Positions 9,747 through 12,458 of a stretch of 15,726 nt of DNA are shown in pieces. The DNA is taken from IMG/VR virus record IMGVR_UViG_2609459833_000012, positions 1 to 15,726 of that record. The stretch is one strand, 5' to 3'. This stretch comes from a virus (lineage: Duplodnaviria; Heunggongvirae; Uroviricota; Caudoviricetes). The notes below the pieces were generated by a model. It searched no databases and was not told where the DNA came from. It saw only the letters and a list, made by a program, of their open reading frames with translations. Made by a program: the position numbers and the translations under genes. The stretch's first letter is position 1. Each line of letters begins with the position of its first letter.

Positions 9747-9757
9747 ACAGACTCCAT

Positions 9758-9783
9758 AAAAAAACCCGGCACAATGACCGGGT
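9758..9783 (-). terminator. Intra-operon rho-independent terminator/attenuator between the 421-aa gene and the giant gene
   Basis: Minus strand reads ACCCGG-TCATTGTG-CCGGGT followed by TTTTTTT, then immediately the GGAG RBS and ATG of the giant ORF. Lies 33 nt downstream of the 421-aa gene stop. Confidence 0.5.
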
Positions 9784-9814
9784 ATCAGGAAATAGTATTA
9801 ACGGGAATGGTGAA

Positions 9815-11080
9815 TTACTGCGCGTAATTCTGTTTCAGACCACGGATAAACTCAGATGCAGAGGCCGCACTATCATCTCTGGCCTGTTCCCCCTTGGCCT
9901 TTTGAATACGGAGAAAATTCGCATACCCGTTCTCCAGCAATTTCTGATTCTGAGGCTCCAGCATTTCTGGCTGACGGGAAGCAACTTCTCTGGCGAATGC
10001 CTGCTTATCCGGATCATCACCCGCCCAACTGGTAATCCCTTGTTGAATTTTTTGCTGCTGAATTTTCTGCTGATGTTGCGGTGAACCAGTTGCAGCGTAA
10101 TACTCACCCCCCGCCGCCTGAGCATTCCCGCCGTTCTTGATCGCTTCCGCCGCTACACTGCTGGCTCCTTCCTGAAGTTTCGCCAGAGAAAGTCCCTGCT
10201 GCTTCGGCGTGAAATAGCCGAAATTTTTCGAAATTTCCGCGAATTTACTGCGATCCCTGACAAGCTCAACAGCCTTATCAACAGGCACCGCCAGCACGGT
10301 TTGATCATCAGGATGTGCACTGCCGTATTCTGTTACAGGTTTATGCGCGGTGGAGCCATCGCTGTATGTGAGATCAAGGCCAATAAGTACGTACCCTTCC
10401 TGCTGCGCCGGTACGATACTGCCAATCCTGGCCTCTTTTATCGTCTTTTTCCCGGTTGAATCGGGCATGCCAATACGCTGTTGCAGTTCCGGGCCAAACA
10501 CCCCGGAAAGGACATCAAGATTCTCCGGCGTATTAAGTGAAGCGATAGCCCTGTCCGGCTTGTCATCAAAGATTTTTTGCAGGTTGTTCACGGCCTGACC
10601 CGCTTTCGCTACATAGCCATCATTCGCCATCAGCCTCAGCGGATTACCCTCTGACAACTGGCCGTAAAGACGCATTGCTGCATCCCGCTCGCCAGCATCC
10701 ACAGCCTTTCCAAGCGCCGCCATCACAGGCTGATCGCGCGCCAGCATATCGTTATACTCAAGCCGTCGCTGGTTGTATTTCTGCATCCGGAGTCGCTGCT
10801 GCTCCATACCCAGCGACGCATTCCGGTAATTCTGGTTGGCGTTAAATTCACGTTCTTTAAGCGCATAATCACGGTCATCAACTTTGGCTTTGTAATCAAA
10901 GTCACGCTGATCAACGTTTTTATTATGTTCAAACTGCGACTGCGCAAACTCAAAATCTCGCTCGTTATTTTTCTGTTGCTGAGCAAGCTGTGCTTCTCGC
11001 AAACCAAGCTCCTTACGACGGGTCATTGCCTGGTCAACCGTGCTGAATCCGGCAAGTAACCCCTGTGCAAATCCGCTCAT
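9815..11080 (-). CDS. Hypothetical 421-aa Gln/Ala/Asn-rich protein (predicted coiled-coil N-terminus); putative virion internal/ejection protein
   Basis: ATG at 11080 with AAGGAG 6 nt upstream, overlapping the stop of the upstream gene. Composition is Q/A/N/K/E-rich with no signal peptide. Tightly coupled in the operon. Confidence 0.85.
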   Translation of the reverse strand: MSGFAQGLLAGFSTVDQAMTRRKELGLREAQLAQQQKNNERDFEFAQSQFEHNKNVDQRDFDYKAKVDDRDYALKEREFNANQNYRNASLGMEQQRLRMQKYNQRRLEYNDMLARDQPVMAALGKAVDAGERDAAMRLYGQLSEGNPLRLMANDGYVAKAGQAVNNLQKIFDDKPDRAIASLNTPENLDVLSGVFGPELQQRIGMPDSTGKKTIKEARIGSIVPAQQEGYVLIGLDLTYSDGSTAHKPVTEYGSAHPDDQTVLAVPVDKAVELVRDRSKFAEISKNFGYFTPKQQGLSLAKLQEGASSVAAEAIKNGGNAQAAGGEYYAATGSPQHQQKIQQQKIQQGITSWAGDDPDKQAFAREVASRQPEMLEPQNQKLLENGYANFLRIQKAKGEQARDDSAASASEFIRGLKQNYAQ

Positions 11081-11090
11081 TCACCACTCC

Positions 11091-11342
11091 TTAAAACAAC
11101 GAGCCAGCAAGACCACCTATGACAGCACCAATAGCCGCACCGGGGAGACCACCAACGGCAGCGCCCATAGCCGCCCCCGTACCAATGCCCGTACCGATAT
11201 TCTGCTTGTTCTGCGCTTTCTGTTGCGCCGCCATCTGCTTGTTAGCAGCCTCAATTTCTTCACGTCGCCTGTCGGCGTCACTTATTCCCTGTAATGCCTC
11301 TCGACGTGACTGATTCGCAATATCCAGTAAACCGTATCCCAT
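11091..11342 (-). CDS. Small membrane protein with C-terminal glycine-zipper transmembrane segment (83 aa from ATG 11342; track ORF extends to GTG 11381)
   Basis: C-terminus is GTGIGTGAAMGAAVGGLPGAAIGAVIGGLAGSLF, a GxxxG-type glycine zipper. The ATG at 11342 has AAGGGG 7 nt upstream that overlaps the TAA of the upstream gene. The longer 96-aa version starts at a GTG with no recognisable RBS. Confidence 0.75.
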   Translation of the reverse strand: MGYGLLDIANQSRREALQGISDADRRREEIEAANKQMAAQQKAQNKQNIGTGIGTGAAMGAAVGGLPGAAIGAVIGGLAGSLF

Positions 11343-11352
11343 ATCGTTCCCC

Positions 11353-11799
11353 TTACCCTGACACCAGTTGTCCACCAACACTCAGTTGCTGTCTTGCAGG
11401 TGCAGAAGCACCAGTCAGTATGTTCATCTGGCGATCCTGCTCTGCTTCCCGTATACCATTTTTCGCGCCAGCAATTGCCAGTGCATTACGTAAACCCAGC
11501 GTGTTACTGTTGGGATTATCCGGACGGTTTACCCCGTATCTCGCCATCTGGTTATCCTGTGCCATCTGCGCTGTACGGAGACTGGAAGTGGCAAGGCCAC
11601 CTACCCGGGCAAGCTGTGCATTCATCAGGCTGTTGTTCTCACCAAGGTCAGCCAGCCTTGCCACGCGGGGCAAATATCTGGTTCGCCAGTCGTCGTATTG
11701 CTGGCGTGTCAGCGCGGCGGATGTCTGCCAGTCACCCTGTGGGCGGGCTGCGCCTGAATAACCAGCCCTTGCGAGAGTTTCGTATTTGCCATACTCCAT
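11353..11799 (-). CDS. Hypothetical 148-aa protein, operon member
   Basis: ATG at 11799 lies 2 nt after the TAA of the 218-aa gene, with GGAG upstream. Ala/Arg/Gln-rich. Confidence 0.8.
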   Translation of the reverse strand: MEYGKYETLARAGYSGAARPQGDWQTSAALTRQQYDDWRTRYLPRVARLADLGENNSLMNAQLARVGGLATSSLRTAQMAQDNQMARYGVNRPDNPNSNTLGLRNALAIAGAKNGIREAEQDRQMNILTGASAPARQQLSVGGQLVSG

Positions 11800-11801
11800 A
11801 A

Positions 11802-12458
11802 TTACAGTCTCCAGTTCTGAGCCTGATGCTGAATAGCATTAGCGCCGGTGCCTGGCGTTTTAGCGCCGCCACCACCTCCGTTACCGCCAGCCTTATGCAT
11901 CGCGTACGCACCTACAGCTCCCAGACCAGCGCCAACAAGAGAAGCTCGCCCCTGTTGTTTCGTAAACGCCGCCTGTGCATCCGATTTGGCTTTTGCCAGA
12001 CTGCTGTCAGCCAAGGAGTTAAAACTCTGTAACGCATCTGCCTTCTGACCGGAACCGAGAGCCGCAACATCCTGTAGCCCGGCAACATACTTATCTGCCT
12101 GCGATACCTGCCCCCGTGTGGTTGTGTCAATCTGCCCGGTTACCTGATCACTCTGGTTCGCATTCATTACCGCGTTAAAGCGACCACTGGACGGGTCAAC
12201 ACCGGACTGAGCAAGATTACCCGCCAGCTCCTTCCGTGCTTCGCCAAACTGTTTCTGATACCCCAGATTTGTGGTGCCAGCAATATTGTCGTACTGCTGC
12301 TCACTGTTCAGGTCATCGACCTTTTCCATGAAGTTATCTTCAGCCGGGCGGAGGATTTTTTGATAATCCTGCCACCCTTTCCAGGCCACTTCTTCCTGTG
12401 CTATTTGCGCTGCTGTTGGTTTTACTTTGGTATCACCACCGCCTTTTTTTCCGCCCAT
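11802..12458 (-). CDS. Hypothetical 218-aa protein with Gly-rich N- and C-termini; first gene of five-gene operon
   Basis: ATG at 12458 with AGGGGG 6 nt upstream. N-terminus MGGKKGGGDTK and C-terminus GGNGGGGGAKTPGTG. No signal peptide. Confidence 0.85.
   Translation of the reverse strand: MGGKKGGGDTKVKPTAAQIAQEEVAWKGWQDYQKILRPAEDNFMEKVDDLNSEQQYDNIAGTTNLGYQKQFGEARKELAGNLAQSGVDPSSGRFNAVMNANQSDQVTGQIDTTTRGQVSQADKYVAGLQDVAALGSGQKADALQSFNSLADSSLAKAKSDAQAAFTKQQGRASLVGAGLGAVGAYAMHKAGGNGGGGGAKTPGTGANAIQHQAQNWRL

Follow-up and report, generated by a model that had tools for sequence, protein, structure and literature searches.

The window analysed here, a stretch of 15,726 nucleotides (nt) of tailed-phage DNA (IMG/VR record IMGVR_UViG_2609459833_000012), contains a block of five genes on the minus strand and, in front of the last and largest of them, a hairpin followed by a run of T residues, which is the main subject of this work. 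The first four genes encode proteins of 218 (12458..11802), 148 (11799..11353), 83 (11342..11091) and 421 (11080..9815) amino acids (aa), and the fifth encodes a giant polyvalent protein of 2788 aa (9746..1380). For the 83-aa gene the mechanical list of open reading frames (ORFs) gives a longer version with a GTG start; we used the start at 11342. According to the ORF coordinates, the junctions in the block measure, in order, 2, 10, 10 and 68 nt. The 148-aa gene starts 2 nt past the stop of the 218-aa gene, and the three short junctions each have a stop codon that touches or overlaps the Shine-Dalgarno (SD) sequence of the following gene (GGAGactgTAAttATG; GGGTAAGGGGaacgatATG; TTTTAAGGAGtggtgaATG). 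An earlier note on this DNA had described a tightly packed set of five genes on one strand, with a hairpin and seven T residues abutting the ribosome-binding site (RBS) of the giant gene, and both this description and its coordinates are correct.

The element has the features of an intrinsic terminator on the minus strand (9783..9758), with a 7-bp stem, a 6-nt loop and seven T residues, located directly 5′ of the SD of the giant gene. The hairpin, ACCCGGT-cattgt-GCCGGGT, spans 9783..9764 and has five G-C pairs in its stem. The T-run spans 9764..9758, the first T being paired in the stem, and ends 11 nt ahead of the giant ATG (9746), with the SD (GGAG, 9755..9752) in between. The translation initiation region of the giant gene (GGAGTCTGTATG, 9744..9755, minus strand) is kept as GGAGTCYGT(N0-4)ATG in distant enterobacterial-type relatives. 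The hairpin has a predicted energy of -11.1 kcal/mol, and the fold of 91 nt around it has a z-score of -2.75 relative to shuffled sequences. It is the sole terminator-like site on the coding strand within 9747-12458. Across the window as a whole, terminator-like matches are not above chance (11 found, 14.9 expected), and therefore the significance of the pre-giant terminator rests on its conservation. Stem, loop, T-run, energy and the conservation described below identify it as a bona fide intrinsic-terminator motif, as the earlier note had supposed. A bidirectional terminator was ruled out, because no T-run follows the stem on the plus strand. A candidate σ70 promoter upstream of the terminator (TACTAT, around 9800) was rejected, because its -35 region is poor and it was not called in the promoter scan.

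The fold of the 68-nt spacer between the 421-aa gene and the giant gene consists of the terminator and one further hairpin, with no alternative antiterminator structure, leader peptide or riboswitch. The second hairpin (GAATTAC-gcgca-GTAATTC, 9830..9812, minus strand, 7 bp) holds the TAA stop codon of the 421-aa gene and is partly conserved among E. coli variants. A ribosome positioned at this stop codon would end ~31 nt before the terminator stem. In an Rfam search of the spacer no family reached its gathering score, and the matches were small RNA (sRNA) look-alikes with E > 0.1.

An exhaustive profile-free search with the 421-aa protein revealed a family of 400-500-aa proteins that share a conserved N-terminal part of 280 residues (73 representatives). 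Loci were fetched for several sub-groups of the family and for two cultured phages. The module recurs in uncultured prophage groups, in ~100 marine Vibrio phages and in the lambdoid Aeromonas phage phiARM81mr, whose small module proteins are annotated as virion structural proteins. Gene order and tight packing are kept, with genes for proteins of ~200, 125, 85 and 440-465 aa followed by one for a protein of >2,700 aa. The small genes are packed at -1 to 12 nt, and the junction before the giant gene is always loose. Of the 72 loci with a locatable giant start (from E. coli, Aeromonas, Vibrio and uncultured groups), 71 have a strict terminator with a T5-T9 run no more than 250 nt ahead of the giant ATG, compared with 0.046 expected per 250 nt from the coding-strand background of 0.18 terminators per kb; the loci are not independent, so that this fraction describes conservation and not repeated invention. 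The single exception has a degenerate copy of the terminator.

Fifteen distinct stem sequences occur in these loci, and pairing and T-run are kept in all of them. The E. coli stems are ACCCGGT/GCCGGGT, GCCCGGC/GCCGGGT and GCCCGAC/GTCGGGC. Outside E. coli we found AAGCCTCAC/GTGGGGCTT, AGCCTC/GAGGCT, AAGCCTCGCC/GCGGGGCTT, GGCCCTGCCAGG/CCTGGTGGGGCT and GAGCCTGC/GCAGGCTT, together with AAGCCCCGA/TCGGGGCTT in Aeromonas and AGCCCGC/GCGGGTT in Vibrio. All of the 16 variants that were folded take the same shape, with energies between -10.6 and -27.3 kcal/mol. Compensatory double changes (G-C to A-U and A-U to G-C) are found, also within E. coli lineages. Since all 15 stems pair and compensatory changes have taken place, the structure must have been maintained by selection. 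The distance between the end of the stem and the giant ATG is variable (17-39 nt, 84 nt or 150 nt), which argues against a strict role in translation initiation. Judged from the comparison of sequences, the pre-giant element is a genuine intrinsic-terminator motif that belongs to the 5′ boundary of the giant gene and has been kept there by selection across a phage supergroup, and it is conserved by structure rather than by sequence across very distant relatives.

Four loci that appeared to be terminator-free exceptions (L051-L054) were rejected as such, because their ORF extends through the hairpin and the true ATG comes after it. For the giant gene of phiARM81mr (p69; L078, GenBank KT898134.1), the annotated start at locus position 8260 was also rejected, as it appears to lie ~1.7 kb too far downstream. 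The ATG is at locus position 6533, after the terminator and with a GAGGA RBS; the frame is open from before 6533, and there is no unannotated 1.9-kb gap. All E. coli-type loci have the hairpin motif CCCGRYCAYYGTGYCGGG as their pre-giant terminator (window 9765-9782). In phiARM81mr this motif is found after the portal gene and after the next-but-one gene (L083 30211-30228 and 31669-31686), and not before the giant gene. Three loci have a conserved insert of ~150 nt between terminator and giant ATG (L063 ~5750-5900, L067 ~7150-7266 and L074 ~8165-8313; …GAGGAGCCAGTACGGTTGGTACGCCTCG.TGGGCTGGTTTCC…AATAAAGGAG), which lacks an ORF and could represent a leader or small RNA. Scans of viral contigs with the family representatives P0126 and P0128 gave no matches. 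A scan of genome contigs with alignment A3 gave as its sole match a 552-bp contig in a Xanthomonas assembly, probably a contamination, and the homologous proteins listed for the 421-aa protein were close E. coli relatives only.

The P0131 and P0137 groups have a variable insert of 0.3-3.9 kb between the stop codon of the 421-like gene and the terminator, which stays 17-39 nt from the giant ATG regardless of the insert. The cargo genes are small, lie on either strand, and encode a UPF0257 lipoprotein, Rha, a KilA-N/ANT antirepressor, a DUF4145 protein and an NA37 nucleoid-associated protein. Also present is a 53-aa ORF preceded by an AT-rich stretch that resembles a promoter. PADLOC assigned the cargo genes to no defence family, save for one weak match. 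From the sequences, the junction upstream of the terminator appears to be a landing site for accessory genes in these relatives. The geometry is that of morons, and it would suit a terminator that protects the giant gene from transcription started in the cargo. It resembles the morons of lambdoid phages (lom and bor; the concept from HK97 and HK022) in that accessory genes with regulatory signals of their own are inserted here and a terminator follows, and lom and hokW, which lie upstream, likewise have terminators of their own. In contrast to moron cassettes, the window has neither an ORF nor a cargo gene in the 68-nt spacer, and the terminator is present although there is no moron. All 47 cargo-free loci of the E. 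coli type retain it, as do the cargo-free loci of Aeromonas and of the P0124 type.

The region forms the final ~11 kb of the late genes in a prophage of the 933W/Sp5 type (Sepvirinae). A 3-kb stretch is 92-97% identical to short-tailed Shiga toxin (Stx)-type phages and prophages (186 phage records; 424 of 5,426 complete E. coli genomes), and the gene order matches that of Shigella phage 75/02 Stx and of E. coli prophages. The five protein lengths map one-to-one on ORF76-ORF80 of Sp5 (ECs1238-ECs1242), which measure 218, 148, 83, 421 and 2793 aa (Mondal et al. 2016 supplement, PMC5155283). The orthologues in Sp5 and phi24B are ORF76/ECs1238 and gp51 for the 218-aa protein, ORF77 and gp50 for the 148-aa protein, ORF78 and gp49 (‘bacteriocin’) for the 83-aa protein, ORF79/ECs1241 and gp48 for the 421-aa protein, and ORF80/ECs1242 and gp47 for the giant protein. 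Lengths (218/148/83/421/~2790 aa), order and strand agree among the three phages, and the DNA is 86-97% identical. The copy in the window differs in that it comes from a non-O157 lineage, closest to phages GER2 and PhiR5_2, and in that it is bracketed by two inverted IS256-family copies. In many Stx2a phages of O157:H7, the insertion sequence (IS) IS629 is found inside the 421-aa gene, after residue ~50-82 (records LC6160xx and AP012534; window ~10835-10930). As the 421-aa gene is essential in Sp5, those prophages should not make infectious particles on their own.

In-frame deletions in Sp5 have shown that ORF79 (421 aa) and ORF80 (giant) are essential. The mutants formed heads and packaged DNA, and the particles were non-infectious and did not bind antibodies against the tail fibre. 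Loss of ORF76 (218 aa) strongly reduced lysogenization, and ORF77 and ORF78 were dispensable (PMC5155283). In phi24B, gp47 (giant) is abundant in purified virions and absent from the electron cryomicroscopy map, and the authors propose that it is an encapsidated ejection protein (bioRxiv 10.64898/2026.04.10.717836). The proteome supplement of the same study lists orthologues of all five proteins in the virion preparation, with ~19 copies of the giant protein (range 11-35), ~30 of the 421-aa, ~22 of the 218-aa and ~36-40 of the 148-aa protein; these are spectral counts from a 2026 preprint, with the portal fixed at 12 and a stated uncertainty of 1-3x. The 83-aa ‘bacteriocin’ homologue gave a low virion signal and was set aside by the authors as a contaminant (10.64898/2026.04.10.717836). 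The five proteins are therefore probably virion-internal or injected. The earlier note had guessed at a structural or injected protein set from composition and architecture, and the Sp5 knockouts (PMC5155283) and phi24B virion proteomics (10.64898/2026.04.10.717836) support this for the orthologues, so that this property of the gene set is already in the literature. The published work on Sp5 and phi24B does not mention a terminator upstream of the giant gene.

Further upstream on the minus strand are lom (14114..13380), a gene of the hok type, located at ~13150..13010 from its counterpart in the related locus L001, and a gene for a 133-aa protein (12951..12550). A terminator scan located an intrinsic terminator after lom (13357..13331, minus strand), and a further one lies between the 133-aa and 218-aa genes (12500..12475, minus strand; GACCCTGC-cccg-GCAGGGTT, then TTTTGTT). 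With -12.6 kcal/mol the latter is as strong as the pre-giant hairpin, and it is conserved in the P0124-group loci. It abuts the RBS of the 218-aa gene, its T-run ending 15 nt ahead of the ATG (12458). The earlier note, which had called the pre-giant hairpin the only substantial structure, covered a range that falls 17 nt short of this terminator; the statement is right for terminator-like sites on the coding strand within 9747-12458, and does not extend to the equal one at 12500..12475 or to the ~10 on the late strand of a complete relative (see below). A consensus promoter scan detected no σ70-like site on the minus strand from 12480 to 9747. There is no room for a promoter before the 218-aa ATG or before the giant ATG, and therefore the essential 421-aa and giant genes need read-through. 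The five genes had been taken for an operon in their own right, which does not agree with a T-run 15 nt before the first ATG, where a promoter has no space; the block is more likely the far end of a Q-dependent late transcript.

In the complete relative 75/02 Stx (92% identical here), all genes from Q (19.2 kb) to the giant gene (ending at 56.4 kb) are co-directional, and the order on this strand is Q-like antiterminator, stx, lysis, terminase, head and tail genes, and the giant gene. Between Q and the giant gene, ~10 strict terminators punctuate the late strand over ~28 kb, some of them located behind the portal gene and behind the capsid-decoration gene, upstream of essential genes. The late strand of phiARM81mr is punctuated in a similar way, and the portal and capsid-decoration sites are among those positionally common to the E. 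coli and Aeromonas phages. For the protein at the position of Q in phiARM81mr, Pfam gave just a zinc-finger hint. Such a layout is the lambdoid one, with late transcription that begins at pR′ and needs Q. In lambdoid late operons, Q-modified RNA polymerase resists intrinsic terminators over tens of kb. The pR′/tR′/Q logic of Stx phages has been summarized, and Term-seq data exist for strain Sakai (PMC7547250). In phi24B lysogens lom is expressed constitutively, and the mRNA of the giant gene (clone CM7) rises only on prophage induction (PMC3342100). The hokW-sokW locus, whose position corresponds to just upstream of the block, encodes a type I toxin-antitoxin system that is active in lysogens of Sp5 (PMC8621323).

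We hypothesize, with about even confidence, that the pre-giant hairpin is an insulator that is bypassed by Q-modified polymerase. Ordinary RNA polymerase starting at promoters active in the lysogen (those of lom and hokW upstream, or of junction cargo in relatives) would terminate at the hairpin, and the 8.4-kb giant gene would thereby be silent in the lysogen. After induction, Q-modified polymerase from pR′ would ignore the pre-giant terminator and the ~10 others on the late strand, and the giant gene would be expressed. Residual termination, or protection of the 3′ end of the upstream mRNA by the hairpin, might slightly lower expression of the giant gene as a secondary effect. We favor this reading because of the terminator motif and its conservation, the absence of promoter space, the series of late-strand terminators and the geometry of the cargo, and because the literature describes the giant gene as essential and its expression as linked to induction, and lom and hokW as constitutive; the termination and read-through behaviour itself we infer. 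The arrangement is similar to that in the Q-dependent late operons of lambdoid phages such as lambda and 933W (pR′-tR′-Q), where a long co-directional late array lies downstream of Q (as in 75/02 Stx), intrinsic terminators are bypassed for essential genes, and termination in the lysogen gives way to read-through after induction. In contrast to the classical tR′, which is located next to its promoter, the terminator described here is ~28 kb downstream and positionally conserved before one particular gene.

Several points weigh against a bypassed insulator. The window contains neither Q nor pR′. Two terminators are already present between lom/hokW and the four small genes, and therefore the need for a third insulator is not obvious in cargo-free E. 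coli phages. The consensus scan found no promoter between 12480 and 9783. The virion copies in phi24B fall from 22-40 for the small proteins to ~19 for the giant protein (10.64898/2026.04.10.717836), which is the direction predicted for an attenuator. Behind the terminator of the Vibrio phages come ~84 nt that include a weak promoter-like site, a hint at a transcription unit of its own and not at read-through.

The earlier note had proposed instead that partial termination lowers the dose of the giant protein. In such a model the terminator would be leaky by design, and a constant share of transcripts would stop at 9758 even when made by the late polymerase, leaving less of the giant protein than of the four small ones. 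In favor of such a device, 71 of 72 loci have the terminator precisely where the giant gene begins, and the small genes are always tight (-1 to 12 nt) whereas the giant junction is always loose. The phi24B copy numbers (giant ~19, against 30, 22 and 36-40 for the 421-, 218- and 148-aa proteins) point in the same direction, and since the giant protein would make up a large share of the virion protein mass, its dose plausibly matters. A known example of leakiness that sets expression ratios is T-phi of phage T7, an intrinsic-type terminator in a structural array, located after gene 10 and upstream of internal-core and ejection genes; T7 RNA polymerase, however, is not antiterminated, and T-phi follows the capsid gene. 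Antitermination of the Q type generically suppresses intrinsic terminators, and terminators of the same strength stand before the small genes and before essential head genes, so that the pre-giant one is not special; products encoded downstream of these other terminators are no less abundant. The virion ratio is at most 2-fold, lies within the 1-3x error of the method, and reflects assembly and not synthesis. Given that the giant protein is essential and abundant in virions, any step-down is at most ~2-fold and need not be transcriptional. The spacer, moreover, has none of the regulatory structures (antiterminator, leader peptide or riboswitch) that could accompany attenuation. On balance we consider a dose-setting terminator unlikely. 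A wider version would be that terminator and initiation region together form an ancient, dedicated control element of giant internal or polyvalent proteins, which fixes the ratio of small to giant proteins across the Escherichia, Aeromonas and Vibrio supergroup, either by termination or processing of a set fraction despite antitermination, or by a stable Hfq-binding RNA from the 3′ untranslated region (3′UTR); this we regard as equally doubtful.

A role after transcription has somewhat different support. The hairpin could be a barrier to 3′ exonucleases that stabilizes the mRNA of the small proteins once an endonuclease has cut the transcript, the end of an Hfq-binding sRNA from the 3′UTR, or an RBS insulator combined with a U-rich S1 or standby site. 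A hairpin with a U-tract is the canonical Hfq-binding module, and the sub-threshold Rfam matches over 9753-9849 are all to sRNAs that end in a terminator (rseX, GadY and SorX; E = 0.13-0.54), although every one of them is far below its gathering score. Loci of the E. coli and P0124 types have the U-run immediately next to the SD, and the initiation region GGAGTCYGT..ATG is conserved together with the hairpin; on the other hand, the spacing to the ATG is unconstrained (17 to 150 nt). Terminators also follow the portal and capsid-decoration genes, where stabilization of mRNA would be useful, but the conserved run of T6-9 is a signature of termination and not of a mere stabilizer hairpin. Our search of the literature on Sp5 locus tags and prophage sRNAs yielded no report of a pre-giant terminator, an sRNA or a processing site, and no experimental report of the latter two. 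We therefore judge a post-transcriptional role to be rather improbable. That the hairpin is an evolutionary leftover without function in E. coli phages, either the 3′ end of a former moron cassette or a by-product of recombination at a module boundary, is very unlikely, because it is retained in the cargo-free loci and its compensatory double changes with a maintained T-run indicate purifying selection on the structure, even though the junction is a cargo hotspot in relatives with the terminator sitting where that of a cassette would, and although the different intergenic positions of CCCGRYCAYYGTGYCGGG hairpins in the Aeromonas phage suggest movement or reuse.

The giant protein contains the Pfam domains LPD38 (4e-47), LPD5 (4e-45), LPD1 (2e-23) and MuF_C (1e-17), all above the curated cut-offs, and has a weak match to a DarB-like PHROG; no enzymatic effector domain was identified beyond MuF_C. 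With its several LPD-type domains it resembles the large polyvalent proteins (Iyer, Burroughs, Aravind 2017, PMC5512222), and, like the DarB-type proteins of P1, its orthologue is packaged in the virion; unlike most polyvalent proteins, this orthologue is essential for infectivity. The 83-aa protein has a C-terminal glycine-zipper segment of the YMGG-like membrane type (PF13441, 28.1 bits, just under the cut-off of 28.9). For the remaining proteins, Pfam and PHROGs gave matches only to PHROGs of unknown function, the 218-aa protein matching phrog_611 and, weakly, the virion structural phrog_8003. The AlphaFold (AF2) model of the 421-aa protein (mean predicted local distance difference test, pLDDT, of 83.8) has an N-terminal helix of 125 residues, a small beta domain and a helical C-terminus. 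A fold search with this model gave no PDB match at E ≤ 0.001, and in BFVD its matches were solely members of its own family. One representative of that family (P0132) has an N-terminal extension homologous to the 83-aa protein, which is either a natural fusion of the adjacent genes or an artefact of gene calling or a frameshift.

The earlier note had pointed to the ejection proteins of P22 (gp7/gp20/gp16) and T7 (gp14-16). No homology to these was found by Pfam, PHROGs, PDB sequence search or the fold search with the 421-aa model; in the PDB sequence search, no chain matched the 218-, 148- or 421-aa protein with E < 0.3, and none matched the giant protein. The resemblance to P22 gp7/gp20/gp16 and T7 gp14/gp15/gp16 is one of organization: a cluster of late genes, virion proteins that are invisible in symmetric reconstructions, and a small membrane-type protein alongside large helical proteins, for which a conduit across the envelope has been proposed. 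The sets differ in number, four small proteins and one giant here compared with three proteins there, and share no similarity of sequence or, for the 421-aa model, of fold.

Two further hairpins and the ends of the window deserve mention. Inside the 133-aa gene (12827-12846, minus strand), the hairpin GCCTGCC-ttaaaaa-GCAGGC, followed by ATTTTGCTTT, is nearly identical in E. coli, the Aeromonas phage and three uncultured groups. The same nucleotides encode the protein motif D-A-C-R/L-K-K-Q-A-F-C-F, and the two synonymous third positions that form a pair in the stem never vary; the hairpin may represent a protein motif, an internal terminator, or both. Directly past the stop of the giant gene (1350-1371, minus strand) is a GC-rich hairpin of 9 bp with a GGAA loop and no T-run, and at this place a Vibrio phage has a strong bidirectional terminator (L050 24428-24454). 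Positions 1-1319 and 14408-15726 form a perfect inverted repeat of 1,319 nt, each end being one copy of an insertion sequence of the IS256 family, which encodes a 402-aa transposase of the Mutator type. One copy lies 60 nt past the stop of the giant gene, and the other interrupts a 205-aa gene upstream of lom. Neither of the IS-phage junctions occurs in the 5,426 complete E. coli genomes, and the IS itself occurs in ~1,870 of them. Either the 13-kb segment from lom to the giant gene is flanked in the manner of a composite transposon, or collapsed IS copies form the ends of the contig.

The genes of the block are already known from Sp5 and phi24B, and the kind of element is known as well, an intrinsic terminator in a Q-dependent late operon at a moron boundary. 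In the literature we found no description of the conservation, at the level of structure, of a terminator before a giant polyvalent or ejection gene, nor of the adjacent cargo site. The block is medically relevant, because it belongs to phages that spread Shiga toxin, and it has been characterized before. If the hairpin is a hard-wired attenuator, it would represent a control of stoichiometry that survives Q antitermination. If it is an insulator, it would explain how cargo expressed in the lysogen, such as lom, hokW, antirepressors and lipoproteins, can reside deep in a late operon without leaking transcription into the giant gene, an 8.4-kb structural gene whose expression in the lysogen would probably be costly or harmful.

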